In this document: positions 1 through 32,682 of the stretch, piece by piece
Layout: every line of letters starts with the position of its first letter
How positions within the stretch are numbered: the first letter of the stretch is position 1
Assembly (NCBI GenBank): GCA_964359735.1
Contig: CAYHTZ010000001.1
Location: forward strand, 1,457 to 65,456
DNA from: an uncultured Candidatus Saccharibacteria bacterium
GTDB lineage: Bacteria > Patescibacteriota > Andersenbacteria > UBA10190
Direction of reading: 5' to 3'
Length of the DNA stretch: 64,000 nucleotides
Translations under genes and position numbers: made by a program
The notes under the pieces: model-generated
What the model was told of the DNA's origin: nothing
The model's input: the letters and a program-made list of their open reading frames with translations, nothing else
Database searches by the model: none

Positions 1-2063
1 CGCCCTCCAGGCCGAAAGTAAAATGACACAGAAAACTCCTGCTGTCCCTTTAGTTCATCGTGCTTCAACGGTATGGTCAGGCCGCTTCTTCCTTCCTGCT
101 GCACGAATGCGATGTCTGTCTCGAGAGGGTCGAACGGTCTAACTAACGCCGCCCCTTCCCCGTCAAATAGCAGGAAGACAGTGAATGCACCGCCCTTCAA
201 TGTTTCTTGTCTCCTTTGCTCCTCAAAATCCGATAGATCGAACGTAAGTGTTAACAGCTTTCCTTCAATCTCCGAAACTGAAATAACCTGCTCAGACAGT
301 AACACCGTAGGTTGTGTAAAGGCTAAGGAGGTACGCGGGTCAAGACGCCCACCCGGAAGCTGCCGCCACCGTCCATCCTCACCCACCAAAGTATCTTCGA
401 GAGTAAGAGGAGTTTCGTTGTACCGGTAGACATCAAAAACTGGCGTCGAGAGCATGCGCGGCAATTTTCTTCCCAAAAGTTCAGGCTGTCTTCCAAAACG
501 GCGAAGGTGTGTAAACGATCGTACGTACTGAAGAAATTCCTCTGCGAGCGTCGGCGTATACAGCTGATACCGAAAGGCGTGATCGTAATTCTCTGGTTCA
601 ATCGGCACGACCAGGTAGTTCGGCTGTCCAAACAAAAACATATGGGGGTCATCTTCGTGCGTGCGGATGCGCGTCGTGGCAGTGCGCCCCCGGTCAAATG
701 GCAGGCTCTGTCGGCCCCCCGCTTCGAATTCGCCCACGACTTCGCCGGGCTCAAGTGCCGACTCGACAAATTCCACTACCTGGATACGAATGTCTTTACC
801 CCAGGCAAAGATCGGGTAGGTTACCCACGTGACTCCAGCTGTGTAGACAAAAAGAAATAACGCCAGCACGGTGGCAAGTGTTCTACGCCCCCACACCTTC
901 GCGAAAGGGAAGTTGCCCGCGATCACCGCCGGGAAGAGCACTACGAAGGTAGAGAGCGGCATAGCATACCGATCGTCCAAAGGACCGGTGAAACTAAGAC
1001 TGTGGTAAACAAGCAGTGAAGCTAAAAGTGTCAGAAGATAAGGGACCGCTTGCTTCGCGCGCCAAGCCGCTACCACGAGCCCCGTAAAGAGAAGAGCCAT
1101 AAACGGAAACACCCGTCGCAGTGCTCCCCCAAAGATCATTTCCAAGAATACCCTGGGTGGCTCGTTATAATCCCGCCAGCTCGTGAGAAACGATTGAATC
1201 GTGGGTAGCCACTTCACCGTGAACACTTGCGTCGTAGGCTCCGTTAGCACCTTCCACCAACGAGCAAAATCAATGAATGGGTAAGGATACAGCGCGAAAA
1301 AAGCCGCCATTGCAGCTACTACGGCCGCGACAGGGTTGCCTCCCACGAGTAAACTCAGCCGTTTCTCGCGAGCAGCTCGTAGGATATGCGCCAGCAGCAC
1401 TACCGGCAGGACAACCACCACTGACGGCTTCGTTGCCGCCCCAATACCCGCCGTCAGCCCCGCCAGCACGTACCAAAATCGGCTACCACGATCGTAGATG
1501 CGAATCGCACATAAAAGTAGCAGCGCATCGTATGTAGCCACTAACAGATCCCCCTTCAGCAGCTGTGAGTAGTACCAATGGCCCGGCATAACAGCTAAGA
1601 GCGCCATGGCCAGCATGCCGCTTCTCACTCCGCCGAGCCGAACACCCAGAGCGTATACCGTGAGCAGCCCCAGCACGCCAAATACGCTATTCACTGCTCG
1701 CGCGGTGGCATACTCAAACACGACGTTCTGATCCGAGTTCCAACCTACCTTCTCACCTAGCGTAAACAGCGGCCGTGCGATGACACGCCACAGAAAAACC
1801 GGGCGCACAATCTCGTATTCATGGAACTGTTCCTTGTACTCACTCCAAGGAATTTTCAGGAAATGCATCACGTGCGGCTCATCGTGGTGGGGAGGTCCTA
1901 TGGGCTGCGTGTAAGAAAGTCCCCAATCCAGCCCACCGACTCGCAAATACACGCCGAGCAAAAAAATTGCCACCCAGAGCCAGCGGCCGGCTCGTGAGGC
2001 AGGAAGTCTCCACGCTCCCGACCACTCCTGTTTAAGATACGCCAATATTTTTTTCACCGTCAT
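1..2063 (-). CDS. GT39/ArnT/PMT-like GT-C membrane glycosyltransferase, partial (3' end beyond window start); absent from ORF track because it runs off the edge
   Basis: Manual reverse-complement translation gives an uninterrupted frame from ATG at 2063-2061 to position 1: MTVKKILAYLKQEWSGAWRLPASRAGRWLWVAIFLLGVY...SQLLKGDLLVATYDALLLLCAIRIY...KPSVVVVLPVVLLA..., multi-TM, resembling the other GT39 paralogs in the window. In-frame stop upstream at 2118-2120. Confidence 0.6.
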   Translation of the reverse strand, partial: MTVKKILAYLKQEWSGAWRLPASRAGRWLWVAIFLLGVYLRVGGLDWGLSYTQPIGPPHHDEPHVMHFLKIPWSEYKEQFHEYEIVRPVFLWRVIARPLFTLGEKVGWNSDQNVVFEYATARAVNSVFGVLGLLTVYALGVRLGGVRSGMLAMALLAVMPGHWYYSQLLKGDLLVATYDALLLLCAIRIYDRGSRFWYVLAGLTAGIGAATKPSVVVVLPVVLLAHILRAAREKRLSLLVGGNPVAAVVAAMAAFFALYPYPFIDFARWWKVLTEPTTQVFTVKWLPTIQSFLTSWRDYNEPPRVFLEMIFGGALRRVFPFMALLFTGLVVAAWRAKQAVPYLLTLLASLLVYHSLSFTGPLDDRYAMPLSTFVVLFPAVIAGNFPFAKVWGRRTLATVLALFLFVYTAGVTWVTYPIFAWGKDIRIQVVEFVESALEPGEVVGEFEAGGRQSLPFDRGRTATTRIRTHEDDPHMFLFGQPNYLVVPIEPENYDHAFRYQLYTPTLAEEFLQYVRSFTHLRRFGRQPELLGRKLPRMLSTPVFDVYRYNETPLTLEDTLVGEDGRWRQLPGGRLDPRTSLAFTQPTVLLSEQVISVSEIEGKLLTLTFDLSDFEEQRRQETLKGGAFTVFLLFDGEGAALVRPFDPLETDIAFVQQEGRSGLTIPLKHDELKGQQEFSVSFYFRPGG

Positions 2064-2119
2064 GCCTATCACTATCGCCCAGGCGCTCCCTAGTGTAAAG
2101 TAGTTGCGATAGATCGATT

Positions 2120-2854
2120 ATGATCCACATCGTTATCCCCGCGTACAACGAAGGCAAAAACCTACCCGCGCTGTTGCAAGATATTGCCAAAGCACTCGCA
2201 AAAGAACCCTACGCTGCTGCCATTGTAAATGACGGCAGCAAAGATAATACAGTAGAAGTTGCACGTGGTCTCGCCAAGCAATACCCCGTGACTGTGCTTG
2301 ATCATCACGTGAACCGCGGCGTGGCTGAGGCCTTCCGCACCGGTATAGCTCATACCAGCGCCAAGGCCGCACCGAATGACGTCATCGTAATCATGGAAGG
2401 CGACGGAACTTCCTCTCCAGTTGTTTTGCCCGAAATGGCCCGGCGCGTGCGAGCCGGCGCCGACATTGTTATTGCTTCGCGCTATGAAGCGGGCGGAAAG
2501 TATCAAAAATTCCCTCTCAAGCGGCTGATTCTCAGTAAAGGCGCAAATATTGTCTTTCAGCTCCTATTTCCGGTGAAGGGCGTTAAAGATTACTCAATTT
2601 TTTATCGCGCCTATCGAGCCGGCGCCTTGCAAGAAGCTCTCGCCCATTACGGCGACAAATTCATTACTGTGCAAACTTTTTTTGCAAACATTGAAATACT
2701 CTTGAACCTACGGCCATTTATTACACGAGTTGAAGAAGTGCCCTTTGTGTACGACTACGGTAAAAAAAGAGGTAAAAGCGGCATGAAAATCTGGAAAAAT
2801 TTGCGGTCGTATCTCTCCTTCATAGCCCAGCATGCCTTCCGAAGCGAAAAGTGA
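2120..2854 (+). CDS. GT2 polyprenol-phosphate sugar synthase (Dpm1/GtrB-like)
   Basis: MIHIVIPAYNEGKNLPALL...VNDGSKDNT...NRGVAEA: GT2 DxD-type signature, 244 aa, divergent from the GT39 gene. Confidence 0.7.
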   Translation: MIHIVIPAYNEGKNLPALLQDIAKALAKEPYAAAIVNDGSKDNTVEVARGLAKQYPVTVLDHHVNRGVAEAFRTGIAHTSAKAAPNDVIVIMEGDGTSSPVVLPEMARRVRAGADIVIASRYEAGGKYQKFPLKRLILSKGANIVFQLLFPVKGVKDYSIFYRAYRAGALQEALAHYGDKFITVQTFFANIEILLNLRPFITRVEEVPFVYDYGKKRGKSGMKIWKNLRSYLSFIAQHAFRSEK

Positions 2855-3770
2855 AGATAAATTCGTCTGTCACTTATGCGGAGCAGGCTCGTATAGAGTA
2901 GTTGTTCGAGGAAATACCAGCCGGCAACAGGCGGCGGGACATGGCGAAGTTTCCATGGAGGAGTATACGTGCACCAGCCGGCACCACGGACAATTCTTTC
3001 AGGTGGTGGAGTGTTTGCGCTGCCGCCTACGCTCCCTCTTCCCTCTGCCTCCAGCGCAGGCAGTTGAAGACGCCTACACGCGCGTTAAGGATAGCGAGTA
3101 CCTCTCCATTGAACCTCCGCGTAAAATAGCTTTCACAAAACTTCTGCAGCGGTTAAAGAATTACTCAAAGCCGCCAGGCAAGCTTCTCGATGTCGGCTGC
3201 TACACCGGCGTGTTTCCCTGGCTCGCAGAGCAGCATGGATACGATGCCTACGGAGTGGAGCCAAGCAAGTGGGCTGCAGACATTGCGGCAGAGCGACTGC
3301 CTGGCAGAATTCATCAAGGCTATTTAGAGAACGCTGCGTTTCCATCAGCCTCATTTGATCTGGTGACTTCCTGGGATGTTATCGAGCATGTCACCGACCC
3401 GGCCAAAGAAATTAAGCTCATGGCGGGCCTCCTTAAGCCGAGCGGCTGGCTTTGCCTATCCACCATGGCTTCTGAAGCGCTGATCGTAAAAACCCTCGGC
3501 TCGCGCTGGCCCTGGTACATGCCTATGCACCTTTTCTACTTCACTCCGCAAACATTAAGTGAATTTCTGCGCCGCGCTGGGCTCTCTCCAAAGCGTCCCG
3601 AGCCGTACCCGCACTACACCACTATGTCGTACGTGTTCTGGAAGTTAGAGCCAGCACTTGGGCTACTCGCCCGCGCCTTGTCCCGCAGCGCCAGGCAGTT
3701 GGGGTTTTCAGAGCGGGTTATAAAAATTGACCTAGGAGATTTCTTTCTCATCGCCGCCAAGAAGCAATGA
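2832..3770 (+). CDS. Class I SAM-dependent methyltransferase with N-terminal Cys4 zinc ribbon
   Basis: CHLCGAG...ECLRCRL zinc ribbon; LDVGCYTGVF (motif I); DLVTSWDVIEHV. Confidence 0.65.
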   Translation: MPSEAKSEDKFVCHLCGAGSYRVVVRGNTSRQQAAGHGEVSMEEYTCTSRHHGQFFQVVECLRCRLRSLFPLPPAQAVEDAYTRVKDSEYLSIEPPRKIAFTKLLQRLKNYSKPPGKLLDVGCYTGVFPWLAEQHGYDAYGVEPSKWAADIAAERLPGRIHQGYLENAAFPSASFDLVTSWDVIEHVTDPAKEIKLMAGLLKPSGWLCLSTMASEALIVKTLGSRWPWYMPMHLFYFTPQTLSEFLRRAGLSPKRPEPYPHYTTMSYVFWKLEPALGLLARALSRSARQLGFSERVIKIDLGDFFLIAAKKQ

Positions 3771-5416
3771 TAAAATACTTCTCAATGAACCGCCGCCTCC
3801 GTATCTTTGTTGATGTAACGCTGATTGTAGTGCTAGTAGCTTCCGCTCTTGCCGTCCGCGTCCCTATCGCGCTGGAGAGAAAAATCATGCCGGCCGGCGA
3901 CGTTTTTAACTTGCAACACATTGCCGATTTTATCCTGCGGTTCGACTATCCTAACCGAGAGAACCGTCTCCCAGGCTTCCCAGCCCTTTTGCTGCTAACT
4001 CGACCATTCCCCGTTGACCCAGTCCAAGCTGCGGTAGGCGTTAGCATTGCGCTCTCTTCTCTCATGCTGGCGTGCCTGTATGGCATAGGCCGCACGCTCG
4101 GCATTCACCGTGTGCCGCTTTTCGCCACATTAAGTCTGTCAATTTTTGACCCCCTTCTCACCATTGGCGCCGTGCGGCCGCTGTCCGACGCTACCTTTTT
4201 ATTCTTCTTAAGCCTGTATCTATTTTTGGTTATCCGTGTGCTGGCGGGAGAAGAAGCGCCCGCTAAGCGCTGGCTTGTCTTCATAGGGCTCGCCACTATC
4301 GCCATGATGTTTACTCGATTCGAAGGCGTCGTGGTGGCGGCTTTAACATTGCCACTTCTGTGGTTTAAACTTCCTTGGAAGAAAGTCGTGGCTACCATTG
4401 CGATTCCTTTCGTCACCGGGCTGCTCTGGATACCCGTCCACTTACATATCCACGGCTCTCTAGCCGGAGGGTACATAGCCGCCTTTGCGGACCCGAGCGG
4501 CGATTTTGGCAACCTCAGCACTGTTCCTAGCAAAATCCTCATCATGGTGAAAAGTGCTGGCTGGGGAACAGCATGGACACTTCCTGCATACGAACTCGAG
4601 CAAGAACCAAATGAAGAAGCCCTACAGCGCCTCGTGATCCAGGGCACGTGGTGGCTAAGCATTTTAGCAATACTTGGCATACCTTGGCTGCTCATTACCA
4701 AACGTTCCGCCGCCCTTCCTTTACTCCTAGCAGCTGCTGGGTACATGTGTATCCTCTCTCTTTGGTTCCTCTACAGCCGCTTTGTGGTACCGCTGGTGCC
4801 AATCTTTTATCTCACAGTCGCTGCCGGGGGAAGTTTTCTTATGAGTGCAATTGCAGGCGAGCGCAGCCGTCCAAATTATGGCGACTTAGCGCGCGGCGCG
4901 GGACTCCCAAGCTTAAGTCTTGCGAAGCAAGACGAGCAACGCATGAAAAATCGGAGCCATAATTTGGGGAGGCTGGAAGCGAGCCTCATCCTAGCCACAA
5001 TTTTCTTCGGCTGGATTCTCTGGACTGAGGCACCCCGGTTGTACCACCAAGCCCTCAGCCGCGCTTGGGAAAGCAACCAAAAAGGGTATTCGCTCTTCGA
5101 CGGCCTGCGCCAAACCGCCAAGCTAAAGGAGCCCACAGCTTATTGGACCGAGGCTCATGCCTTCGCCACACTGTATTTGAAAGAACACGGTTTCTACTTT
5201 AACCGTCGCCCTAATGACTCTCCCGAAGAGTTACATGAACTCATGCAGGAAAATAAAATTAAGCACCTCATTAATTCGGGTGACGATACACGCGTTCCCG
5301 AACTCAGAAAGCTCCTCCAAGAGCGCGGCAATGTTGCGTCCACCACCACGTACCGTGCACTCATTTGGGGCGATGGCAGCTTAGAAACAACGGACGTGGA
5401 TCACTTAGTCTGGTGA
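3767..5416 (+). CDS. Polytopic membrane protein, GT-C-like; carries an in-frame copy of the ~130-nt repeat element (family A)
   Basis: 549 aa with many TM segments; contains ERSRPNYGDLARGAGLPSLSLAKQDEQRMKNRSHNLGRLEAS encoded by 4852-4984. Confidence 0.5.
   Translation: MIKYFSMNRRLRIFVDVTLIVVLVASALAVRVPIALERKIMPAGDVFNLQHIADFILRFDYPNRENRLPGFPALLLLTRPFPVDPVQAAVGVSIALSSLMLACLYGIGRTLGIHRVPLFATLSLSIFDPLLTIGAVRPLSDATFLFFLSLYLFLVIRVLAGEEAPAKRWLVFIGLATIAMMFTRFEGVVVAALTLPLLWFKLPWKKVVATIAIPFVTGLLWIPVHLHIHGSLAGGYIAAFADPSGDFGNLSTVPSKILIMVKSAGWGTAWTLPAYELEQEPNEEALQRLVIQGTWWLSILAILGIPWLLITKRSAALPLLLAAAGYMCILSLWFLYSRFVVPLVPIFYLTVAAGGSFLMSAIAGERSRPNYGDLARGAGLPSLSLAKQDEQRMKNRSHNLGRLEASLILATIFFGWILWTEAPRLYHQALSRAWESNQKGYSLFDGLRQTAKLKEPTAYWTEAHAFATLYLKEHGFYFNRRPNDSPEELHELMQENKIKHLINSGDDTRVPELRKLLQERGNVASTTTYRALIWGDGSLETTDVDHLVW
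4852..4984. repeat. Family A structured repeat element (~130 nt), copy 1, in-frame inside CDS 3767..5416
   Basis: About 88% identical to 11950-12083; outer stem ccaaattatgg/ccataatttgg plus inner hairpin gtcttgc-gaa-gcaagac. Confidence 0.8.
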
Positions 5417-6279
5417 TACCACTCCACCGTTCGCCTGATTCCTTCCTCCAATGTAACTCCTGGCTCCCAGGCCAAGAGCCGCTTCGCTTTCGAATTATCG
5501 AGTACCCAGGAATCATCTCCTTTCCCCGGATATGGCGTTACCTGACGGGAGATCTTTTTTCCCGTCACCTGTTCGATCGCTTGCAAAATGTCTTCAAATG
5601 AATGGGCCTCATCTGCCGCGACATTGAATTCTTCATACTTTTCTCCGCTTCTCACCGAAGCTAAAAGATACACCTCCACGACATCATCAATATACGTAAA
5701 ATTGCGTACCAGCGGGCCTACCGAAATAGTAAACGGTGTACCTTCCAGCGCGGCGCGCACCGCCGTTAAAACAAAACGCGAGGGGGAGTCCCCTGGTCCA
5801 AAAACGGGAGACAAGCGCAATACACTGACTGAGATATCGTGTTTTTCAGAGAACAGCCGACAAAAAAACGTGGCCGCAGCCTTCGTCACCGCATAATCAT
5901 CCCACGGAGAGAGCGGCGTATCTTCCGTAATTGGCACGCGGCTGGTCGCATACTCTTTGGCACTGGCCGCAAAAATGAATCTCGTGCACCCATGCTTTAC
6001 TGCTGCTGAGAGCAAGTGATACGTCCCCGTGATATTCACCGCAACCATGCGCGGCACATCTTTTTCATGTCCGAATGTGCCATAGGCCGCCAAGTGAAAA
6101 ATAACTTCAGGCTTTGCCTCCTCCACTGCGCGCTCCACGGCCTCAACATCTGTGATATCTCCCTCCGGCAAAGAAAATGTTGCTACCTCAACCCCTTGCA
6201 CTTGCAACTGTCGAACCAAATGCGCCCCCACAAACCCCGTTGCCCCCGTGACCAGAGCGCGAGTGTACAGCACCTTCAT
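5401..6279 (-). CDS. NAD-dependent epimerase/dehydratase (SDR), possibly an NDP-sugar ketoreductase
   Basis: VTGATGFVGAHLV Rossmann motif; YAVTK catalytic YxxxK. Confidence 0.7.
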   Translation of the reverse strand: MKVLYTRALVTGATGFVGAHLVRQLQVQGVEVATFSLPEGDITDVEAVERAVEEAKPEVIFHLAAYGTFGHEKDVPRMVAVNITGTYHLLSAAVKHGCTRFIFAASAKEYATSRVPITEDTPLSPWDDYAVTKAAATFFCRLFSEKHDISVSVLRLSPVFGPGDSPSRFVLTAVRAALEGTPFTISVGPLVRNFTYIDDVVEVYLLASVRSGEKYEEFNVAADEAHSFEDILQAIEQVTGKKISRQVTPYPGKGDDSWVLDNSKAKRLLAWEPGVTLEEGIRRTVEWYHQTK

Positions 6280-7544: not shown

Positions 7545-8281
7545 CCGCGGACCGGTTGGAAGACAGGGTCCTTTCTTCCTGCTCTCGCCAGGTGGTAGCG
7601 CGCTAACGTCCAGAGCATCTCGGCCGTGTATTTAATACCTTTGCGCAGACCCATTTGCGTTACGCCCGGCGGGTATTCGCACACCACCGCTATCTCTGTA
7701 ATCGTAAAGCCGTGATAAATCGCCTGCAGAATAGTTTCAAAGCTGAATAAGTGATCATTTGAATTCGCCTCAAAGTTAACTCGCTCCAGGAACGGCCGCG
7801 TATATACGCGAAAGCCCGTCTGAAATTCCGTCAGGCGCGTGCCTAAACTTACGTTCGCAATCCAGGTCAAAATAATGTTCACCACGTACTTAATTAGCGA
7901 CATCCCCGCCTCCCGGGCCGTTCCCCCCTCCATGAGCCGAGAGCCCAGTAACATGCCGTCGGTGGGCTTTAGTGCCGCCAGCACTTTCGAGAGATCCCCG
8001 CCATTATATTGTCCGTCTGCGTGTAACTCAAAAAATATATCGCCGTCTGTCTCTAAAGCTTTTCTCAGCATCCCTTTCATATTGCCGCCATAGCCCAAAT
8101 TACGCTCATTCTGATACACCCGCGCTGGCAAGGTTTTAGCTAATTCAAATGTCTCATTATTATCGGGAGATTTATCATCCACTATAATAACTTCCTCTAC
8201 CAACTCCCGCGGGATTTTCCGAAACGTTTCAACCACACGTTTCCCAGCCCGATACGCCGGCATAAGCACTACAACCTTCAT
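7541..8281 (-). CDS. GT2 polyprenol-phosphate sugar synthase (Dpm1-like); track ORF extends to 8452 but the likely start is MKVVVLMPAY at 8281
   Basis: MKVVVLMPAYRAGK...IIVDDKSPDNN...NLGYGGNMKG...HADGQY. Confidence 0.7.
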   Translation of the reverse strand: MKVVVLMPAYRAGKRVVETFRKIPRELVEEVIIVDDKSPDNNETFELAKTLPARVYQNERNLGYGGNMKGMLRKALETDGDIFFELHADGQYNGGDLSKVLAALKPTDGMLLGSRLMEGGTAREAGMSLIKYVVNIILTWIANVSLGTRLTEFQTGFRVYTRPFLERVNFEANSNDHLFSFETILQAIYHGFTITEIAVVCEYPPGVTQMGLRKGIKYTAEMLWTLARYHLARAGRKDPVFQPVRG

Positions 8282-8309
8282 AAAAACAGTATAAACGTGG
8301 CCTTTAGTC

Positions 8310-17330: not shown

Positions 17331-17376
17331 ACTGTTACTCTATACTCTGCTTACACCCTCATGCTACACTGCCGCC

Positions 17377-24809: not shown

Positions 24810-24833
24810 TGCTGCTTAGTGTAATCTATCCAC

Positions 24834-26771: not shown

Positions 26772-28689
26772 TAGCATCACCCGGGGCAGATGTAGGGCTC
26801 TCCAAAAAAATGTAGTACGTTTTTCCCGCGGAATCTACGATCGGCTCGAACTCAAAGCGGTGGTAGAAGCTGTCCTGAACATCACTAGCATTCACCCGCA
26901 CTGTCCGTACATCCTGTTGCGAAGCAACAAGCCCTGAGCCTGCTTGCAGTGAGCCCGTCGAAGGGCCAACCACTTCACGCACATGCATAATGACATCCTG
27001 CGTGTTATGGCGGCTGCTGAACGTGGCCATGCCGACCTCGATAGCATGCCACCCATTTGTAAGTATCGGCACAAGTTGTCCAACAGTTGCCCCGCCATAT
27101 AACTCACCCACGTGGTTAGGAAAATAGTGCAGCCCACGCGTGTCGTAGACCCATACATACGGCACCCCTTGTATCTCCACCACGTGCGCTACTTTCTCAT
27201 TCTGGAATTCCTCCCATACCTCTGTCGCTGAATTTGCCGGCCCTCTTCCCAGCATGTTTCGATAGAGCACCACAAATCCTACTCGCTCATCAGCCCGTGA
27301 GCTTAAGCCCAACGTTTTTCCTTGAAAATACGCTCGCATGACCCCCGGATACCAGGAAGCTACAAACAACTCCTCCACACTTGGCTGTCTATTAAGCCAA
27401 GCGGCCGCTTCCTCCAAACCCTCTCCCCACCCTTGCTGCGACAGCGGGCGCACATCAAAAAATGGGTTGTTATAGGCAATGCTGTGGGGAATCCAAATAA
27501 AAAGCTGGGCCGCAATTAAAATAGCTATCAGAGACAGGCCTGCCCCGCGAAGCTTTAGCGAAGTGGGGACCCATCCAGAAGCGGTAAATGCAATAGCCAA
27601 CGCCCACCCTGCCACCACTGGCAACACCACCAACCCCGGCAACGCATACCGATCCGCTTTCTTCGCAGCGATCGTTATAAAAATCAAGAATCCTAAAGCA
27701 TAAACAATTAACCAAATGACATTAGAAGCCTGTGGAGACACCGTAGAGCGAAGATCCCGCGAAGCTTTAGCGAAGTGGGATCGCAGCAGAGTCATTGCAC
27801 AAGCAATTAGCGCTCCCGCGCCCAAAATCAATACAAACGGCGTTGTTCTCCCCAGAATCGTACGCACATAGAAGCTAGCGGGGGAAGTCGGCTCTTCTGA
27901 CTCTTCCAATACCACGTGAGTATCCTGAATAACGTAAGGGACTTCACGGCGGAAGTATTTCTCAAGGTCGGCGTAAAACCATAATGCCGGCCATAGGATA
28001 TAGAAAACCAGCGCCGCTATACCTAAGGTGAACCCTAGTCGCCGTACCACCTCCCCTACCCGGGTGCGATAGTCCCAAAGCAGGACCGCAGCGAAGAAGA
28101 GCACTACCCACGCCGTTGGTAAAAATTTCGTCGCCATCGCCAGCCCCAGGAAAACTCCTGCGGCAGCTAACCCTACAAAACCCCCTGCCCGGCGATAGAG
28201 GAGAAAACACAACGCTGCATTCAGCATAAATAGCGCCAGCAGCGCATCCAAGTGCACAATCTGGCTCATACCCACGCCATACGGCTCAAGCGCGAGCAAA
28301 ACTCCGGCAACCACGCCCGGCCACACGCCAAAGAGGCGTTGCAACAGCCAAGTGGCAGCACCAATCAGCCCAGCCACCACTAATACAATCGGCCAGAGTG
28401 CGGCTCGACGGAACTGCACCAAATTCGCTGGCTCCTGAGTAACTCCTAAGCGCTGCTCTTGCAGCATGATTCCCGCGCCAGCTATCCACATAGCCGTGGC
28501 CCCAGGGTGAGTCGTCATAAACGCTCCCCCGGGATCGTGGTCAATGAAGAGGTTGCGATAGAGTCCGGCGCTGCGCAGCATCCAATTTTCCTCATCCACC
28601 GTCATGAAACTGCCCAGCCCGGGCAGGCGCGCTCCTAGGGCAATGATGCCTACTCCAAGAGCAGCCCAAAATACTTTTGATATCCGCAT
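26671..28689 (-). CDS. GT39/ArnT/PMT-like GT-C glycosyltransferase with C-terminal soluble domain; carries two family B insertions
   Basis: HPGATAMW...SQIVHLDALL...QQGWGEGLEEAAAW; C-terminal domain has FYHRFEFEPIVDSAGKTYYIFL. Confidence 0.7.
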   Translation of the reverse strand: MRISKVFWAALGVGIIALGARLPGLGSFMTVDEENWMLRSAGLYRNLFIDHDPGGAFMTTHPGATAMWIAGAGIMLQEQRLGVTQEPANLVQFRRAALWPIVLVVAGLIGAATWLLQRLFGVWPGVVAGVLLALEPYGVGMSQIVHLDALLALFMLNAALCFLLYRRAGGFVGLAAAGVFLGLAMATKFLPTAWVVLFFAAVLLWDYRTRVGEVVRRLGFTLGIAALVFYILWPALWFYADLEKYFRREVPYVIQDTHVVLEESEEPTSPASFYVRTILGRTTPFVLILGAGALIACAMTLLRSHFAKASRDLRSTVSPQASNVIWLIVYALGFLIFITIAAKKADRYALPGLVVLPVVAGWALAIAFTASGWVPTSLKLRGAGLSLIAILIAAQLFIWIPHSIAYNNPFFDVRPLSQQGWGEGLEEAAAWLNRQPSVEELFVASWYPGVMRAYFQGKTLGLSSRADERVGFVVLYRNMLGRGPANSATEVWEEFQNEKVAHVVEIQGVPYVWVYDTRGLHYFPNHVGELYGGATVGQLVPILTNGWHAIEVGMATFSSRHNTQDVIMHVREVVGPSTGSLQAGSGLVASQQDVRTVRVNASDVQDSFYHRFEFEPIVDSAGKTYYIFLESPTSAPGDAITVRFANSDLAAGEMVKNGTSLPGRDVAYRLPK
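27539..27568. repeat. Family B palindromic element, copy 1 (encodes PTSLKLRGAG in the host frame)
   Basis: cctgccccgcgaagctttagcgaagtgggg. Confidence 0.8.
27753..27782. repeat. Family B element, copy 2 (encodes HFAKASRDLRS); perfect 6-bp TIR gatccc/gggatc
   Basis: gatcccgcgaagctttagcgaagtgggatc. Confidence 0.8.
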
Positions 28690-29486
28690 CTACCCTGTAT
28701 GATGGGCGCATGTTTCGCCAATGTAAAATTTGTGGAGGAGCGGTTACTCCTCGGCATACGGTAAGCAGCATTACCTACTATCACTGCTCCAGCTGCGATT
28801 TTCTACAGAATTATCATTGGGAGGACCATCACTTCTCCGCCCCGGAACAAGCAGTGGCCAACGATGAAGCCCGGGCCGACCGCTGGCCGGCCGGGAAAAA
28901 GAAAGATATGTATGAAGCCGGCTGGCGCATGCTGGAGCTTCTCACGTCCCCTATCGCCTGGGGCTCTCGGAAGGTTCACAACGTCTTTAAAATAATCCCC
29001 GGATACACTCATCTCACCCGCACCCTCGCCAAACGTCGCCTAAAGCGCGTTCTCGATTTCGGCTGCGGCCACGGCGTCAGCGTACTGGAAATACGCAATC
29101 GCGACGGTATCGACATTATCGGCCTAGACCCCTACAGCCCCACAGCTAGCCCCCACATCGTGCGCAAACCCATTCATGACGCTAACCTCGAACCTGAGTC
29201 TCTTGATGCTATTATCTCTGTGGAAACAATGGAGCACATCTCCGATGTCCTCCCCACATTCCGGGCTCTCCACCGCATACTTCGCCCCGGCGCTGCACTT
29301 TTGATACAAACTCACCGCCTGGAAGACCCCGGGTACATTCGCGACCAAGACAAATGGTTTTACCTAAAAGACCCCAAAACTCACGTCAGTATTTACAGTG
29401 ACCGCGCTCTAGACGAGATCGCCAAGAGAACCGGATTTAGCCGAGCCGAAACCCGCGACATCCGCACCGCCCGCCTTTGGAAATAA
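28677..29486 (+). CDS. Class I SAM-dependent methyltransferase with N-terminal zinc ribbon
   Basis: CKICGG...CSSCDF; VLDFGCGHGV; DAIISVETMEHI. Confidence 0.65.
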   Translation: MISASTLYDGRMFRQCKICGGAVTPRHTVSSITYYHCSSCDFLQNYHWEDHHFSAPEQAVANDEARADRWPAGKKKDMYEAGWRMLELLTSPIAWGSRKVHNVFKIIPGYTHLTRTLAKRRLKRVLDFGCGHGVSVLEIRNRDGIDIIGLDPYSPTASPHIVRKPIHDANLEPESLDAIISVETMEHISDVLPTFRALHRILRPGAALLIQTHRLEDPGYIRDQDKWFYLKDPKTHVSIYSDRALDEIAKRTGFSRAETRDIRTARLWK

Positions 29487-29492
29487 ACCCAA

Positions 29493-30017
29493 CTAGGCCA
29501 GTGTTGGATATATGCCTGGCGGTTCCGGCTCACGGAATACCTCTGCTCGTTGGATTAGTTCCGTAGTAGTCGCTTGTACTTGCCCCGAACGCTCTAACGC
29601 TTGTATCTCCGAAAGTGTTTTCCACTCTGCTCTAACATGGCCCCCACGAGCCACTACATCAGGCTTTTGCCCCGGAGGAAACTCCACAATCAGAATATCA
29701 ATAGAGCGGTCAACAAATTTAGTTTCATCACGCGGATCAGGCAATCTTCGAAAGACATGGCCACCGCGGCGAAGGTCGTCCTGCCCCACAAGAATCCCTG
29801 TCTCTTCCTCTAATTCACGTGCCGCAGCTTTCCAGGCCAGATCCCCGTCCTCTTCTTCAACCTTACCTCCTGGCAGATTTAATTGATTCGCCCAACGTTT
29901 GCCTGGCGCTCTCTCGAGCAGCAAGTATTCATCCCCGCATTTCACAACAATAACCACAAATGGTCGCACGCCATCCCGCCCGAAATCTGGAATGTCCGCG
30001 GCCTTATTCGTTAACAT
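29493..30017 (-). CDS. NUDIX hydrolase
   Basis: NUDIX box GGKVEEEDGDLAWKAAARELEEETGI. Confidence 0.7.
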   Translation of the reverse strand: MLTNKAADIPDFGRDGVRPFVVIVVKCGDEYLLLERAPGKRWANQLNLPGGKVEEEDGDLAWKAAARELEEETGILVGQDDLRRGGHVFRRLPDPRDETKFVDRSIDILIVEFPPGQKPDVVARGGHVRAEWKTLSEIQALERSGQVQATTTELIQRAEVFREPEPPGIYPTLA

Positions 30018-30027
30018 CCCTCTTCTT

Positions 30028-32682
30028 CTACCGCACCCGCCGGTAAAAGGTCAATGGGTTTGAGCCGTTCTCAACTTCGTGTACCTTCACGAAATCTCTA
30101 GGTAAACCTTGCTCTAAATCGGCGTACTCCACGAAGAAAGAAAATTGGGTTTGCGACTCGTGCAATACCCACTTCGCATCTTTGAATGCTTGTACCATTT
30201 CCTCCGCCGGGGGCAAGAAGGTGTTGAGGCGCTCAGTATCTTTCCTCGTGAACTCATACGCGTACCAACGCGGGTGGGCAATGTCAAGCGACACCGCGTG
30301 CCCTGAAACATACGGAACAAGAGCAGCGCCAGTGAAAACGGGGTCGTCAGGCGGAACATGTTCTTTGGCCCACTGGGCAGCTTCATTAATCGAGCTTTGG
30401 CCAAACGTACCGGTGTGCTCAAACAAGAACGTAATGTAACTTCCCGTATACAGCGCCCAGAACATCACTGCGACCGCGCCAGCCACCACTAGTTTCCGCA
30501 GCACTGCGATCGGCGGGTAATCGCTAGAAAGGAACAAGGGCGCCCGTAAGCGGTCAAAGAGGTACATCACCCCGGGAGCCGCCAATAAAATAAGCGGGGG
30601 AATAAACTCGGCTATATAATTGGCATGGAATTTAATCCAGTTCGTATAGAACACCACAAGTCCCAACATCCACAGCGGCCCCACGAGCGCTGCAGTAACC
30701 TTTGGTAGGAAATCTTTCTGCTTGCTACTTGATATCTGATACTTACTACTAGACATTGGTTGCGTGCTCTTCGGAACTACTGGCGGCTCTTCGAGAAGGC
30801 GAAGCGCATCTTCTTGCTGCCGCGGCATGAGCGCAACCAGCAAAACTCCCAACCCCATCACCCACCACAGCGTGGGAATACCGAGAATACGAAAGGCCTC
30901 GCCTTCATATTCGTTAAAGAATCCCCACGCCCAGCCGAACACTAACAGAGCAGGCACCCAACCCAGCTTTGGCACGTAATGATCCAGGAAGCGAATAGTT
31001 ACGCGAGAGAGGCTGTCCCGCGTAGCCTTGGCGAAGTGGGACAGCCATTCTATGCCAGCGCGTATCGCCCGCTCGCAGGCAATGCCAAACCCTAACAGTC
31101 CAAACCAAATGAGCGCTAACGACTCGCGGAAAAAGGGTGTCATCCCCCGCAGAGAATACGCGCGTATTAATCCGGCATCTTCTTCTGCCACGTTGATCCC
31201 GTCTTCGGCTGAGTTAGCGCCTAACGCTTCCCAAACTCCCTCTACCCCATACGTGAGCCAGGCTACTCCCAAGAAGAGACCGATGACTACTGCAAAACTA
31301 ATGCCCACAGTAAAAAATTGCCGCCAAACCTGCCTGCCCCGCGAAGCCTTGGCGAAGTGAGGGCCATAGAGAAGTATGAAAAGTATCGGGACAAGCCCCA
31401 ACGCCAACATGCTCTTCCGCGAGGCCACGGCGAGTCCCAGCAACACCCCAGCGAGCGCAAACCACCAACTCGCGGCCGGCGCCCTTGGCGCAAAAAGAGA
31501 GGCGCGTGGCGTGGTTCCCCTTAGTGCCATCAGAAGCACGGCGAGACCTGAGATGCCCAAAAATATTGCCACCGGCTGCGTGTGCACGTAGATATCGAAA
31601 ACAATCGCGCTGCCGAAGAATGCCCAAGCCGCAGCTGCTACCAGCCCTGTTTTCTTATCAAATAAATCCCGACCTAAGGAGTAGATGGGGAGAAGTGTTA
31701 AGGCACCGATCACAACACTCGAAAGTCTGCCTGCCAAAATGGTATGGCCAAAAATGAATTGCCAAATTGAAATCCACGCTACTACGAGCGGCGCTTTTAC
31801 ATATCCATCCCCACCCGCGAGGTTCCCCTTGAGTAAAGTCCAGGCATCGTATAAATAGTTTCCTTCATCGGTGGTGAGCGGCAGCTCCAATGCGTACCAG
31901 AGACGCATAAAGAACGCGGCTAAGAGAAGTATGGGCAACCATACGGCCAAGCTTAAAGTATGACGGCGAATCAAGCCTACGCAGACGAGAAACAGCACCG
32001 CGGGGAGCGCTAGCCTAGCCCACAACCAATATGTGCTTTTTTTCTCATCCCACGTGCCGATAAACGTCCGCGCGTATCCTTGTGCCTTGGTCCAGACAGC
32101 CTCGCGCGCTGTGACCGTGTGGTACGTTTCAAAAACCACATCAATCGTCGGCTTCCCGGCCGCGGCCAGGGTTGCCGGATCAGTCACCGCCGAGCCTTGA
32201 TCCTTGACTATAAATGCCGAGCCTAAGTGATAAGGGTCTTGGGTATTGAGATCCACCGTCACCGCGTTACCCGGCGTACTCTCCGGCGAAACCAAAAAGA
32301 AGAAGTATGTTTTGCCTTTAGAATCAGGAATTGGATCAAAAGTAAAACGATGGAATTGATTGTCACGAAGCTCGCTGGCTGACACCGACGCCACTCGTAC
32401 ATCTTCTTTTGCCGAAAGCCCCTCGCGTACATGGAGCTTCACAAGCTGCGTGTTGTCTCGATTCGAGTACGTCGCGAACATCACCGAGAGGCCCGATAAA
32501 TCATCTTTCTGTGCTACGAATGTCTGCCCCACCAACACATCGCGCACTATTTCCCCCGCGTTCGTGGTGTATTTCCCAATTTGCGTCTCAACTAATCTCA
32601 CTTTCACAAATTGGCTCGCAATCGTAGCCGCCGCTACCAGAAGTACAATCATCCCCAGCGCAAATTTTGTCGTCGTCTTCAC
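30028..32682 (-). CDS. Large membrane protein: N-terminal soluble beta domain plus GT-C-like polytopic region; carries two family B copies and one family D copy
   Basis: 884 aa; N-terminal domain has NQFHRFTFDPIPDSKGKTYFFFL; more than 12 TM segments. Confidence 0.55.
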   Translation of the reverse strand: MKTTTKFALGMIVLLVAAATIASQFVKVRLVETQIGKYTTNAGEIVRDVLVGQTFVAQKDDLSGLSVMFATYSNRDNTQLVKLHVREGLSAKEDVRVASVSASELRDNQFHRFTFDPIPDSKGKTYFFFLVSPESTPGNAVTVDLNTQDPYHLGSAFIVKDQGSAVTDPATLAAAGKPTIDVVFETYHTVTAREAVWTKAQGYARTFIGTWDEKKSTYWLWARLALPAVLFLVCVGLIRRHTLSLAVWLPILLLAAFFMRLWYALELPLTTDEGNYLYDAWTLLKGNLAGGDGYVKAPLVVAWISIWQFIFGHTILAGRLSSVVIGALTLLPIYSLGRDLFDKKTGLVAAAAWAFFGSAIVFDIYVHTQPVAIFLGISGLAVLLMALRGTTPRASLFAPRAPAASWWFALAGVLLGLAVASRKSMLALGLVPILFILLYGPHFAKASRGRQVWRQFFTVGISFAVVIGLFLGVAWLTYGVEGVWEALGANSAEDGINVAEEDAGLIRAYSLRGMTPFFRESLALIWFGLLGFGIACERAIRAGIEWLSHFAKATRDSLSRVTIRFLDHYVPKLGWVPALLVFGWAWGFFNEYEGEAFRILGIPTLWWVMGLGVLLVALMPRQQEDALRLLEEPPVVPKSTQPMSSSKYQISSSKQKDFLPKVTAALVGPLWMLGLVVFYTNWIKFHANYIAEFIPPLILLAAPGVMYLFDRLRAPLFLSSDYPPIAVLRKLVVAGAVAVMFWALYTGSYITFLFEHTGTFGQSSINEAAQWAKEHVPPDDPVFTGAALVPYVSGHAVSLDIAHPRWYAYEFTRKDTERLNTFLPPAEEMVQAFKDAKWVLHESQTQFSFFVEYADLEQGLPRDFVKVHEVENGSNPLTFYRRVR
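30713..30758. repeat. Family D repeat, in-frame (encodes MSSSKYQISSSKQKD)
   Basis: gcttgctacttgatatctgatacttactactagaca, related to 22262-22336. Confidence 0.55.
31011..31046. repeat. Family B element, copy 3 (encodes SHFAKATRDSLS); 9-bp perfect TIR ggctgtccc/gggacagcc
   Basis: ggctgtcccgcgtagccttggcgaagtgggacagcc. Confidence 0.8.
31333..31365. repeat. Family B element, copy 4 (encodes GPHFAKASRGRQ)
   Basis: cctgccccgcgaagccttggcgaagtgagggcc. Confidence 0.8.

Follow-up and report, generated by a model that had tools for sequence, protein, structure and literature searches.

A dense array of GT-C-type glycosyltransferase genes in a candidate cell-envelope glycan locus of a Candidate Phyla Radiation bacterium

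Introduction

Why would a bacterium with a small genome encode a dozen membrane glycosyltransferases side by side, and what would they glycosylate? We addressed this question for a 64,000-nt stretch of DNA (the window) from an uncultured Candidate Phyla Radiation (CPR) bacterium of Hainich groundwater, whose nearest relative is Ca. Andersenbacteria. The original prediction described repeated modules of a GT2 glycosyltransferase, a zinc-ribbon methyltransferase and a GT-C glycosyltransferase, and proposed that methylated sugars are transferred to periplasmic or surface targets. In the established framework, a monosaccharide is first attached to polyprenyl phosphate by a GT2 and then transferred by a GT-C on the extracytoplasmic side; GtrA-GtrB-GtrC, CsbB-GtcA-YfhO and GacI/J-GacK-GacL are three- or multi-component examples (PMC8035078, PMC11127046).

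Twelve GT-C-type proteins are encoded in one array

ORF and Pfam analyses indicated that 12 GT-C-type polytopic proteins are encoded in positions 1-32,682, where their genes (named here by first coordinate) occupy 23.7 of 32.7 kb, or 73% of the DNA; the predicted gene content was real and lies at the coordinates given for it. The GT-C density exceeded chance expectation: 12 of the first ~22 genes were of this type, versus none of the next ~27 in a Pfam scan of the window. Other genes there encode three polyprenyl-phosphate-sugar-synthase-like GT2s and one GT2 fragment, four class I methyltransferases, of which three have a zinc ribbon at the N-terminus, and one sugar 3-C-methyltransferase. Genes on the same strand abut or overlap.

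All 12 polytopic proteins were assigned to the GT-C type by Pfam, by profile and hhalign comparisons and by two AF2 models with GT-C matches. The HMM assignment that had been suggested as a check gave PMT_2 (PF13231) matches above the gathering cut-off in six proteins (3-2063, 8310, 10836, 12525, 26671 and 30028), PMT in 26671 and PF09586 in 17971. Eleven of the enzymes are intact and fall into four or more divergent groups: GWGEGLE/PMT-like, the large 12525/30028 type, YfhO-like and the 3767 family. An acidic motif following the first transmembrane helix is retained in the GT-C enzymes, with a DE dyad in 8 of the 12, and the acidic first-loop motifs are kept across orthologs.

The GT-C proteins belong to divergent groups

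Five paralogs had been predicted to share an HxDAL loop and a GWGEGLE domain; the two motifs occurred together in exactly four proteins. The first, 26671 (26671-28689, minus strand), matched PMT (PF02366, 37 bits) and PMT_2 (28 bits), and contains an alpha/beta periplasmic domain and a C-terminal beta-sandwich. Its invariant residues are D32-E33, H146, D148 and G420WGEGL, and its AF2 model (pLDDT 84) was matched by Foldseek to AglB, STT3, ArnT and Pmt4 (TMt 0.60). The profile of the 26671 family, A1, recovered 8310 (8310-9959, minus strand; PMT_2 33 bits; HTDAL at 134, GWGEG at 408) at E 6e-63 and 21252 (21252-23327, minus strand; HVDAL at 176, GWGEG at 459) at E 1e-128. Protein 8310 forms its own orthologous clade with the related locus L030; 21252, also in its own orthologous clade, has no Pfam PMT_2 match and carries a C-terminal beta-sandwich (DUF6212, 27.8 bits). 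In 10836 (10836-12524, plus strand; PMT_2 29.5 bits; HTDAL at 155, GWGEG at 463), the match to A1 is interrupted by a ~50-aa insertion; the L030 ortholog has 501 aa. The supposed fifth member, 3-2063 (minus strand), whose C-terminus is cut by the window edge, lacks both motifs and had no BLAST match to the four carriers. It is a PMT_2-type GT-C outside the subfamily (31 bits, above the cut-off) that matched A1 in the membrane core only (E 1e-10) and the Agl23-type model TIGR03663 at 40 bits, below the cut-off. It has HDEP after the first helix region, and its L030 ortholog (722 aa) is 40% identical.

Four further polytopic GT-C-like proteins had been proposed, and all four stood. Two are large. 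Protein 12525 (12525-14891, minus strand; 788 aa) has an N-terminal extension, a PMT_2 core (34 bits, residues 282-436), an IDEG motif at 258 and a C-terminal domain in common with 30028, which it resembles at E 7.5e-16; its orthologs are 64% (L030) and 54% (L031) identical. Protein 30028 (30028-32682, minus strand; 884 aa; PMT_2 35.5 bits) has orthologs at 43-52% identity in nearly all related loci. Homology links its N-terminal extracytoplasmic beta-sandwich (residues 33-161) to the C-terminal domain found in 26671 and 21252 (A1 positions 510-637, E 6e-38). In Foldseek, the beta-sandwich domains of these three proteins weakly resembled lectin or jelly-roll modules (E 4.5e-5 to 0.2, TM 0.11-0.17). 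The third, 23352 (23352-24809, minus strand; 485 aa), has no Pfam match of its own and was related to PMT_2 by hhalign against A1 (94%, E 1.5e-7); its orthologs bear PMT_2, and PGLxGDE is invariant.

The fourth, 3767 (3767-5416, plus strand), represents a rare family not modelled in Pfam (23 homologs in a set of 5.8e9 proteins; 40 representative clusters at E<=1e-30) and had no Pfam or NCBIfam match. Its AF2 model (pLDDT 86, pTM 0.83) was compared with the PDB by Foldseek, and ranks 1-32 were all GT-C enzymes (STT3A E 1.4e-7, ArnT TM 0.50), so that 3767 is a GT-C by predicted fold alone.

Of the three YfhO-like proteins in the original prediction, two held and one proved to be a truncated remnant. 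Protein 17971 (17971-20844, plus strand; 957 aa) matched PF09586 at 40.8 bits and has an LDDL motif at 65; its ortholog in L031 is 70% identical and those in syntenic loci 38-44%. A small membrane protein without a Pfam match is encoded 5' of it (17209-17910, plus strand), with a 65% ortholog at the equivalent position in L031. The divergent 24834 (24834-26771, plus strand; 645 aa) had no Pfam match; it was assigned by hhalign against the YfhO-like profile A6 (99.9%, E 2e-33), and D68-W-D70 is invariant. The remnant, 16005 (16005-17330, minus strand), comprises the membrane half alone and is 30% identical to residues 47-417 of 17971 (E 2e-39); its relatives of ~760 aa bear PF09586, and 16005 is without their C-terminal half.

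Donor synthases, methyltransferases and sugar-supply genes adjoin the GT-C genes

The lipid-linked-donor logic of the original prediction was supported by two soluble GT2s resembling dolichol-phosphate-mannose synthase and one ArnC/GtrB-like GT2. The soluble 2120 (2120-2854, plus strand; PF00535 86 bits; no transmembrane helix predicted) is a predicted polyprenyl-phosphate-sugar synthase; its top PDB match was Pyrococcus Dol-P-Man synthase (5mlz, E 2.8e-25, residues 2-234), followed by ArnC and GtrB. For 7541 (7541-8452, minus strand; PF00535 49 bits), 5mlz was the sole PDB match (E 1.3e-10), and PpgS and Dol-P-hexose transferase were the top NCBIfam matches, both below cut-offs. Its L030 ortholog is 84% identical and has 246 aa, so the true start of 7541 probably lies downstream. 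Both proteins lack membrane anchors and scored far below every NCBIfam equivalog cut-off. The membrane-anchored 34777 (34777-35730, minus strand; PF00535 131 bits; C-terminal transmembrane helices) aligned near end to end with the ArnC (169 bits) and PgfS (162 bits) models, below the equivalog cut-offs. Weak NCBIfam matches in the locus to AglJ, haloarchaeal Dol-P-hexose transferase and Agl23-type models were all far below cut-offs. The predicted GT2 fragment (15784-16092, plus strand) exists as a remnant of a Dpm1-like GT2 gene, limited to ~100 N-terminal aa; tblastn aligned 79 aa at 42% identity with residues 56-133 of 7541 (E 3.6e-15).

All four genes predicted to encode zinc-ribbon methyltransferases encode class I SAM methyltransferases, and two CxxC pairs are present in three: 2832 (2832-3770, plus strand; Methyltransf_23 107 bits; CHLC and CLRC), 14860 (14860-15759, minus strand; 91 bits; CPVC and CQRC; 31% identical to 2832) and 28677 (28677-29486, plus strand, divergently oriented to 26671; 84 bits; CKIC and CSSC). 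The fourth, 9943 (9943-10836, minus strand; Methyltransf_11/23/25 matches), has no CxxC pair. Gene 2832 overlaps the GT2 gene 2120 by 23 nt and the GT-C gene 3767 by 4 nt, 9943 overlaps GT-C 8310 by 17 nt, and 14860 overlaps GT-C 12525 by 32 nt. The proposed GT2-methyltransferase-GT-C trio is complete twice (2120/2832/3767 and 9943/8310/7541); a pair of methyltransferase and GT-C alone is present at two other places (14860/12525 and 28677/26671). A 65% ortholog of 9943 lies at the equivalent position in L030, where the 9943-8310-7541 arrangement is conserved, and 28677 has orthologs (~51%) in L007, L008, L016 and L023 but is missing from other relatives.

Protein 2832 has 851 homologs, and distant ones adjoin GT2/GT-C genes. 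We sampled four distant contexts only, a Rokubacteria MAG plus three further unrelated contigs; in all four, homologs of the zinc-ribbon methyltransferase, full-length and ~40% identical with the CxxC pairs conserved, adjoined GT2 and/or polytopic GT-C-type genes (GT87, Mannosyl_trans2, PMT_2 and YfhO). The predicted methylation link thus gained support from both gene overlaps and distant neighbourhoods, and the latter make it the most novel element of the locus.

The predicted C-methyltransferase 6276 (6276-7544, minus strand; PF08484 174 bits, PF08421 60 bits) matched MtmC over its full length (PDB 4rv9, E 6e-93), placing it in the MtmC/TcaB9/KijD1 family of NDP-hexose 3-C-methyltransferases. 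The final gene of this C-methyl-sugar operon, 5401 (5401-6279, minus strand), encodes an NDP-sugar epimerase/reductase of the SDR type (Epimerase 153 bits, RmlD_sub_bind 71 bits) with a 71% ortholog at the equivalent position in L030. A NUDIX hydrolase (29493-30017, minus strand; PF00293 53 bits) possibly acts on a nucleotide sugar. The conserved core includes an NDP-sugar 4-epimerase/dehydratase-type SDR (32679-33644, minus strand; GDP_Man_Dehyd 198 bits; orthologs 59-78% identical) and a cytoplasmic GT4 glycosyltransferase (33654-34796, minus strand; Glycos_transf_1 141 bits; orthologs ~70%). Beyond them lie nucleotide-sugar supply genes (35809-40624, minus strand; Pfam), syntenic in related MAGs: RmlA-like, SDR epimerase, heptose-1-P nucleotidyltransferase-like, PfkB kinase, GmhA-like SIS isomerase and RmlD.

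The array is old and maintained

So many similar-looking genes, packed densely in a sequence of metagenomic source, could stem from faulty assembly or binning, with contigs collapsed or duplicated, or from the recent acquisition or amplification of an island, and the original prediction spoke of an extreme local expansion. This explanation is effectively refuted. The paralogs are just 27-32% identical at the protein level, and the region contains no long DNA repeats other than a 133-135-bp element. Replicate assemblies R1-R3 reproduced parts of 2.6-8.1, 5.3-6.3 and 25.7-30.0 kb at >99.8% identity. GC content is uniform across the region (0.49-0.56), and housekeeping genes form the right flank. 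The paralog phylogeny, which had been proposed for dating the duplications, showed four separate orthologous clades of the paralogs, shared with Andersenbacteria-type MAGs, indicating ancient rather than recent paralogy. The core order GT2-GT4-epimerase-GT-C-GT-C-YfhO-like is conserved in ~20 Andersenbacteria-type loci, and the order of the left half of the array is kept in L030 and L031. Judged from these comparisons, the array is old and maintained, not a recent expansion, with some decay. Since GT-C 16005 and the GT2 fragment 15784 have decayed, not every gene need be functional.

Proposed function of the locus

We propose, with a probability of about 0.6, that the region makes up the GT-C-rich half of a chromosomal locus for a cell-envelope glycan, working by multi-component transmembrane glycosylation. 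Its most likely product is a complex surface coat of sugars, some of them methylated. Neighbouring genes of the dTDP-rhamnose, heptose and epimerase types would supply nucleotide sugars, one of which may be a 3-C-methyl-6-deoxyhexose made by the MtmC-like 6276 and the reductase 5401. At the cytoplasmic face, 2120, 7541 and 34777 would load single sugars onto polyprenyl phosphate. The four SAM methyltransferases, taken as cytoplasmic, would O-methylate the sugar, on its nucleotide or lipid carrier, before export, because SAM is available in the cytoplasm only. A putative flippase, for which no GtrA-type or other candidate was found in the island, would export the lipid-linked sugar, and the 11 intact GT-Cs would pass it to a surface acceptor at the outer face, each GT-C group with a distinct acceptor or linkage specificity. 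Because one donor must serve several GT-Cs, the array's most likely task is to elongate and decorate a glycopolymer associated with the wall, and possibly surface proteins, instead of placing a single sugar on a single target. The analysis establishes the family and fold assignments, the conserved motifs of catalytic type, the operon-like overlaps, the synteny, the ancient paralogy and the methyltransferase-GT2-GT-C neighbourhood across phyla. Which donors and acceptor are used, when methylation takes place and in which direction each reaction runs are inferred; mannose, protein acceptors and methylated sugars are likewise presumptive at this locus.

Alternatively, and closest to the original prediction, the array could serve mainly protein O-glycosylation of the PMT/Ppm1 or streptococcal Pgf type, in which proteins that are secreted or lie in the membrane (pili, S-layer, disordered tails) receive single sugars on Ser/Thr, with polyprenyl phosphate as the carrier, and the paralogs differ in protein substrate. 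Consistent with this, 26671 matches Pfam PMT and, by profile, yeast Pmt1 (E 0.0028), has Pmt4 as its top TM-score and bears the first-loop DE dyad found in PMTs, and Dpm1-like GT2s adjoin. In streptococci, Ser/Thr-rich regions are modified by the YfhO-type PgfM1 together with PgfS (PMC12041528), whose model 34777 matches. However, no protein of the window contains a Ser/Thr-rich segment (>=40% over 30 aa), Foldseek placed oligosaccharyltransferases and ArnT above PMTs, and 12 GT-Cs with three donors are unlike any described system of this type. Nor can the acceptor be read from the family, as teichoic acids and wall polysaccharides, too, are glycosylated by PMT_2 and YfhO members (PMC8035078). 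We consider protein O-glycosylation as the main role unlikely.

The methyltransferases might instead be bystanders acting on a lipid, a quinone-like compound, a protein or a nucleic acid, beside an ordinary three-component-type cluster with no methylation step. Their closest solved structures are generic class I enzymes (UbiG/UbiE-like), none sugar-specific, their homologs are annotated by JGI as benzoquinol methylases, and 28677 occurs in some relatives only, all of which would favour this reading. To our knowledge, quinone synthesis is not known in CPR bacteria. This, the 4-32 nt overlaps, the arrangement kept in L030 and the recurrence of GT2 and GT-C neighbours in all four distant contexts make a bystander role quite improbable.

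Among known systems, three- and multi-component ones likewise rely on a GT-A-fold GT2 and a GT-C encoded by adjacent genes; the GT-C is of PMT_2 or YfhO type or unclassified and has its acidic motif on the extracytoplasmic side. They differ in having one or few such pairs, whereas 12 GT-C and three GT2 genes share the present locus. Here, two GT2 enzymes are soluble, genes for SAM methyltransferases and a sugar C-methyltransferase lie between the glycosyltransferase genes, a flippase gene of the GtrA or Wzx type is missing from the neighbourhood, and the host is a small-genome CPR bacterium. In mycobacterial and corynebacterial assembly of LM, LAM and arabinogalactan (Ppm1 and DPA donors with PimE, MptA-C, EmbA-C and AftA-D), many divergent GT-Cs, some with extracytoplasmic carbohydrate-binding-type domains, draw on a very small number of polyprenyl-phosphate-sugar donors to assemble and branch a wall glycopolymer on the outer side of the membrane; the present models match AftA, AftB, AftD and Emb. 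The enzymes are not orthologous at the sequence level, the genes in mycobacteria are dispersed rather than gathered in one 33-kb array, and the donors and acceptors of the CPR locus are putative. With 12 GT-Cs for three donor synthases, this pattern would fit no worse than protein O-mannosylation of the PMT type.

Protein O-mannosylation (eukaryotic Dpm1 with PMT; actinobacterial Ppm1 with Pmt) also pairs a Dpm1-like GT2 with a PMT-family GT-C bearing a DE motif, and the streptococcal Pgf system (PgfS, PgfM1, PgfE and PgfM2) resembles the conserved core of an ArnC/PgfS-like GT2, an epimerase and YfhO-like GT-Cs. The present locus, in contrast, has no MIR domain, no nearby Ser/Thr-rich acceptor, far more paralogs and added methyltransferases, and Foldseek does not favour PMTs over other GT-Cs. 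Haloferax volcanii N-glycosylation employs the GT2s AglD and AglJ, the methyltransferase AglP, which acts on dolichol-phosphate-bound sugar, and the GT-C AglS. It recalls the present locus in combining a GT2 for polyprenol phosphate, a SAM methyltransferase that modifies lipid-linked sugar on the cytoplasmic side and a GT-C with Dol-P-sugar as donor; the differences are a bacterial host, a zinc ribbon in the methyltransferase and no oligosaccharyltransferase gene (AglB/PglB) in the window. Protein 6276 resembles the 3-C-methyltransferases MtmC, TcaB9 and KijD1 of antibiotic deoxysugar pathways, aligning over its full length (E 6e-93 to MtmC) and having both the zinc-binding and the C-terminal domains, but it is encoded beside a Dpm1-like GT2 and a GT-C in a CPR operon for a probable cell-envelope glycan, not in a secondary-metabolite cluster.

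A palindromic element lies within two GT-C genes

A 133-135-bp palindromic element was observed in frame within GT-C genes 3767 and 10836. Copy 1 (4852-4984, plus strand) is 89.6% identical to copy 2 (11950-12083, plus strand), which folds into a long hairpin (-62.8 kcal/mol, z -3.55). Copy 1 is an in-frame insertion missing from 3767 orthologs at 66-75% identity, and it was recovered in the independent assemblies L029 and L032.

GT-C families and folds

ORF calling and Pfam searches bore out the gene content predicted for the array (window 1-32,682; genes are named by their window start coordinates). Twelve GT-C-type genes, one of them truncated, span 23.7 of its 32.7 kb. Their proposed placement in GT-C families was confirmed by HMM for 3-2063, 8310, 10836, 12525, 26671 and 30028, which passed the PMT_2 cut-off, 26671 passing that of PMT as well. 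The 26671 family is already annotated as GT39 by NCBI. The products of 21252, 23352 and 3767 themselves fell short of the Pfam PMT_2/PMT gathering threshold. Among these, 21252 matched a profile built from 29 orthologs of 26671 with an E value of 1e-128, 23352 matched the same profile by hhalign (94%) and has orthologs with PMT_2, and 3767 showed a weak link to PMT_2-type proteins (hhalign 52.6%). All 12 candidates contained about 6-16 hydrophobic segments by a crude Kyte-Doolittle count, which we counted as agreeing with the roughly 8-13 transmembrane helices of GT-C enzymes.

3-2063 had been predicted as a fifth paralog sharing the HxDAL loop and the GWGEGLE motif. Both motifs were present in four proteins (8310, 10836, 21252 and 26671), not five; the motif scan, BLAST and the 26671 ortholog profile indicated that 3-2063 encodes a different PMT_2-type GT-C.

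The 3767 protein had no match in Pfam or NCBIfam. Only 23 homologs were found among 5.8 billion proteins, an exhaustive HMMER search returned only 40 representative clusters at E<=1e-30, and most of its remoter relatives likewise lacked a Pfam match. 3D similarity to solved GT-C enzymes was checked for two representatives, 3767 and 26671, the rest being linked to them through sequence or profile homology. Both AlphaFold2 models were helical bundles. The 3767 model, calculated from its 23 homologs (pLDDT 86, pTM 0.83), retrieved only GT-C enzymes at ranks 1-32 of a PDB search (STT3A, ArnT with TM 0.50, ALG12, AglB, PglB, Pmt4, DPY19, AftA/B). The 26671 model (pLDDT 84) comprised a membrane domain, an alpha/beta periplasmic domain starting near GWGEGLE and a C-terminal beta-sandwich, and it resembled AglB, STT3, ArnT, Pmt4 (TMt 0.60), AftA, AftD and Emb. 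The beta-sandwich, which gave weak jelly-roll/lectin-type matches only, is also carried by the N-terminus of 30028. Sequence-profile searches of the PDB with the 24834 and 23352 families found nothing meaningful.

Three further genes are YfhO-like. 17971 scored 40.8 bits against PF09586 (cut-off 28.5), its best stretch being the C-terminal end only; 16005 and 24834 had no Pfam match. The 16005 protein aligned with the membrane half of 17971 at 30% identity (BLAST E 2e-39) and lacked the C-terminal half found in its relatives of about 760 aa, and the 24834 family matched a YfhO-like profile by hhalign at 99.9%. The GT2 fragment predicted at 15784 was confirmed (42% identity to the 7541 protein over 79 aa): an N-terminal remnant of about 100 aa of a Dpm1-like GT2 (15784-16092, plus strand) overlaps the 3' end of the truncated 16005-17330 (minus strand), and this overlap marks a decay or rearrangement scar. 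Next to it, 17209-17910 (plus strand) encodes a small membrane protein of 233 aa with a cysteine-containing extracytoplasmic part and no Pfam match. An ortholog in a related locus (L031; 65% identity) lies directly upstream of a YfhO-like gene, and the 17209 product may be a partner of the YfhO-like GT-C 17971.

A DE dyad followed the first helix in 8 of the 12 proteins (3-2063, 8310, 10836, 12525, 21252, 23352, 26671 and 30028). 17971 had DD at the equivalent place, 24834 had DWD, and 3767 had an invariant GD45. In ortholog alignments, the residues D32-E33 (26671), GDE (23352), D-W-D (24834) and GD (3767) were invariant just past the first transmembrane helix. The predicted loop topology places an acidic motif in the first extracytoplasmic loop, where it is expected in a GT-C enzyme. 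These proteins would use a polyprenyl-phosphate-linked sugar donor, for which the adjacent Dpm1/ArnC-like GT2 genes are no more than circumstantial evidence.

Age of the array

The original prediction had described a local expansion that might prove to be an assembly artefact. The GWGEGLE paralogs are mutually only 27-32% identical, the window contains a single DNA repeat of at least 40 nt, and replicate assemblies reproduced several segments at >99.8% identity. A core gene order was common to about 20 Andersenbacteria-type loci: heptose genes, an RmlA-like gene, GT2 34777, a GT4, an epimerase, 30028, optionally 28677, then 26671, 24834, 23352, 21252 and the YfhO-like 17971. In a closer relative, L030, proteins of the left half (3-2063 to 12525) were conserved at 64-84% identity, apart from the 3-2063 protein at 40%; L031 kept part of this half. 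In a neighbour-joining tree, each of the four window paralogs grouped in a clade of its own together with orthologs from other MAGs; a further, fifth clade had no window member, and Chloroflexales sequences fell outside. Paralog divergence, synteny, the tree and the replicate assemblies together led us to reject both an assembly artefact and a recent amplification. Because each paralog has its own ortholog clade and the order is conserved, the duplications took place before these lineages diversified. The array as a whole is maintained, although genes have been gained and lost and some have decayed.

The one repeat is a palindromic element of 133-135 bp, with copies at 4852-4984 and 11950-12083 (plus strand) that are 89.6% identical overall and 93% identical over a 68-nt core. 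It lies in frame in two otherwise unrelated GT-C genes, 3767 and 10836, and in both it encodes ERSRPNxGDLARGAGLPS...NRS..LGRLEAS. The element folds into a long hairpin with terminal inverted repeats of about 28 nt (-62.8 kcal/mol, z -3.55). It was found in independent assemblies and was missing from the closest orthologs; a more distant ortholog (P0128) had a degenerate insertion at the same site. One metagenome scan and BLAST against 560 kb of related loci returned contigs of the same organism only. Its features suggest a miniature mobile element whose insertion into a loop-coding region is tolerated, and it resembles known palindromic elements that lie in frame, for example in Rickettsia.

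Sugar donors

Genes for putative GT-A-fold polyprenyl-phosphate-sugar synthases were found together with the GT-C genes, at 2120, 7541 and 34777. The 2120 and 7541 proteins are soluble, and their best solved relative was the dolichol-phosphate-mannose synthase of Pyrococcus (E 2.8e-25 and 1.3e-10, respectively), followed by ArnC and GtrB. Their top NCBIfam models were the mycobacterial polyprenyl-phospho-GalNAc synthase PpgS and a haloarchaeal Dol-P-hexose transferase, all far below the cut-offs. The 34777 protein has C-terminal transmembrane helices and aligned almost end to end with the ArnC (169 bits) and PgfS (162 bits) models, below the equivalog cut-offs.

GT2 7541 belongs to a minus-strand operon with methyltransferase 9943, GT-C 8310, C-methyltransferase 6276 and reductase/epimerase 5401, an arrangement kept in L030. 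The 6276 protein contains the PF08421 N-terminal zinc-binding, PF13489 SAM and PF08484 C-terminal domains and aligned over its full length with the NDP-hexose 3-C-methyltransferases MtmC, KijD1 and TcaB9 (4rv9, E 6e-93; 5t64, E 5.5e-66; 3ndi, E 2.4e-61), suggesting that it is a 3-C-methyltransferase. RmlA-, RmlB-, RmlC- and RmlD-like genes are also present within the window. We infer from these assignments that a branched 3-C-methyl-6-deoxyhexose would be made from dTDP-4-keto-6-deoxyhexose and would then be fed into the lipid-linked route. MtmC/TcaB9-type enzymes are best known from antibiotic pathways. Such an enzyme with an SDR reductase in an envelope-glycan operon (5401-7544, minus strand) implies a putative branched-chain C-methyl deoxysugar on the surface.

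A sugar-supply cluster occupies 36700-45721 (minus strand). It encodes a GmhA-like SIS protein, a PfkB kinase and a separate nucleotidyltransferase (a split HldE-like pair), SDR epimerases, and RmlD, RmlC and RmlB-like proteins, together with a transaldolase and a transketolase split in two (43386-44210 and 42463-43398). A supply of sedoheptulose-7-phosphate for heptose synthesis is plausible.

Association of methyltransferases with GT2 and GT-C genes

Four zinc-ribbon methyltransferases had been predicted (2832, 9943, 14860 and 28677). A CxxC scan found the double CxxC ribbon in only three of them, so the fourth zinc ribbon was rejected. On inspection of the sequences, the methyltransferases had no predicted membrane segments. 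They resembled generic class I enzymes only, and their reading frames extend 4-32 nt into those of GT2 or GT-C genes. The zinc-ribbon type had 851 homologs, among which full-length ones from Actinomycetota, Gaiellales and Rokubacteria were about 40% identical. We sampled the surroundings of distant homologs (n=4, picked solely for long contigs). GT2 and/or polytopic proteins were encoded beside the homolog in 4/4 contexts, and the CxxC pairs were conserved. The neighbours were a GT87 and two GT2s in a Rokubacteria MAG (GCA_016196245.1; L035), a Mannosyl_trans2 protein on L036, a protein with a weak PMT_2 match on L037, and a protein with a weak YfhO match and a GT2 on L038/L039. These four contexts, a small sample, point to a putative functional module of methyltransferase, GT2 and GT-C, and this module may be widespread.

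SAM is cytoplasmic, and methylation must therefore precede export; its substrate would be either the nucleotide sugar or the lipid-linked one. We tentatively propose, with a probability of about 0.3, that a Dpm1-like GT2, a GT-C and a class I methyltransferase with a zinc ribbon form a hitherto unrecognised, phylum-spanning 'methyl-sugar' three-component module. O-methylation would take place on the polyprenyl-phosphate carrier, or immediately before the sugar is loaded onto it, and the sugar would then be transferred outside. Multiplied in Andersenbacteria-type CPR bacteria and joined by a 3-C-methyl deoxysugar, the module would give an unusually methylated, relatively hydrophobic coat. If true, such a coat could matter for host attachment or phage evasion.

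Export and acceptor

In multi-component transmembrane glycosylation, as described for O antigens and for the wall polymers of Gram-positive bacteria, the product of a GT2, a polyprenyl-phosphate-sugar, is exported by a flippase, and its sugar is then transferred outside by a GT-C (PMC8035078, PMC11127046). By analogy, the locus fits this scheme. Three donor synthases would serve eleven intact GT-Cs, so several GT-Cs would share one donor; this is closer to the assembly of mycobacterial lipomannan, LAM and arabinan than to single-sugar decoration. The original prediction, a diversified pathway for methylated sugars on lipid-linked donors modelled on Ppm1/Dpm1 and PMT O-mannosylation, was supported in part: the lipid-linked scheme stood, and the expansion proved not to be recent. 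The observation itself was confirmed with the corrections given above.

No small multi-helix ORF that could encode a three-component flippase (GtrA-, Wzx/MATE- or ArnE/F-type) was found outside annotated genes in 1-45.7 kb; the only small multi-helix ORFs seen were two 2-helix ones at 45,725-46,476. The sole transporter-like gene in the window (49968-51599) is of the MurJ/MOP family and may serve lipid II. The flippase gene may lie in another part of the genome.

The PMT_2 and YfhO families include enzymes for both protein and polymer acceptors (PMC8035078). Ser/Thr O-glycosylation of a protein acceptor, of the PMT or Pgf type, is possible and has a precedent in the Pgf system (PMC12041528), but the window encodes no protein rich in Ser/Thr. 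A second glycan cluster may supply a polymer for modification by the array. This cluster (49968-59720, minus strand) encodes a Bac_transf phosphoglycosyl transferase (58293), GT4s (57143, 55335 and 54186), an 850-aa DUF4012 protein (51603) and the MurJ/MOP-family flippase (49968). It also includes 56511, a small protein of two to three helices with no Pfam match that might be Wzz-like.

CPR bacteria, mostly uncultured and with small genomes, are thought to be attached to other cells. The locus offers concrete genes for testing CPR surface glycans. That about 24 kb coding for a dozen extracytoplasmic glycosyltransferases is conserved suggests strong selection on the complexity of surface glycans in this lineage. 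The methyltransferase-GT2-GT-C link recurs in unrelated phyla, which suggests that methylated surface sugars are made by a general route not described so far. Literature searches on GT-C arrays in CPR/Patescibacteria and on methyltransferase-coupled GT-C systems returned no directly relevant paper, with partial coverage that does not prove absence. The parts are all from known superfamilies. What appears new, and was described in no paper that these searches returned, is the size of the array and its conservation in a CPR lineage with small genomes, the presence of interleaved methyltransferases with a GT2/GT-C association that crosses phyla, the C-methyl branched-sugar branch feeding a GT2/GT-C pair, and GT-C families invisible to Pfam (3767 and 24834). 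Since HMM libraries miss these whole families, GT-C counts in metagenomes are underestimates.

Source and genomic setting

Proteins identical to those of the window were found on contigs named Hain_H51_01um (ENA ERZ1292623, ERZ1292627 and ERZ1292643), a name that we read as Hainich groundwater, well H51, 0.1-um filter fraction. The same proteins occur on a 122,981-bp NCBI contig annotated 'Patescibacteria group bacterium'. The nearest homologs of the GT-C proteins were almost all from Ca. Andersenbacteria MAGs, some auto-labelled Saccharibacteria. Exact-protein look-ups for the left border of the island (2120, 5401 and the protein P0144) returned short Hainich contigs only, or nothing.

The window is chromosomal DNA. 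Its GC content is even (0.49-0.56), and its right half carries, besides the second glycan cluster, the housekeeping genes for LepA, RecJ and enolase, the MurJ-family gene and RNase P RNA. A stretch of about 1.07 kb (45722-46794) is without a long ORF or annotation; each of its only two short ORFs has two hydrophobic segments. The RNase P RNA (59829-60298, plus strand) is of bacterial class A (197 bits); at 470 nt against a 367-position model, it carries insertions of about 100 nt.
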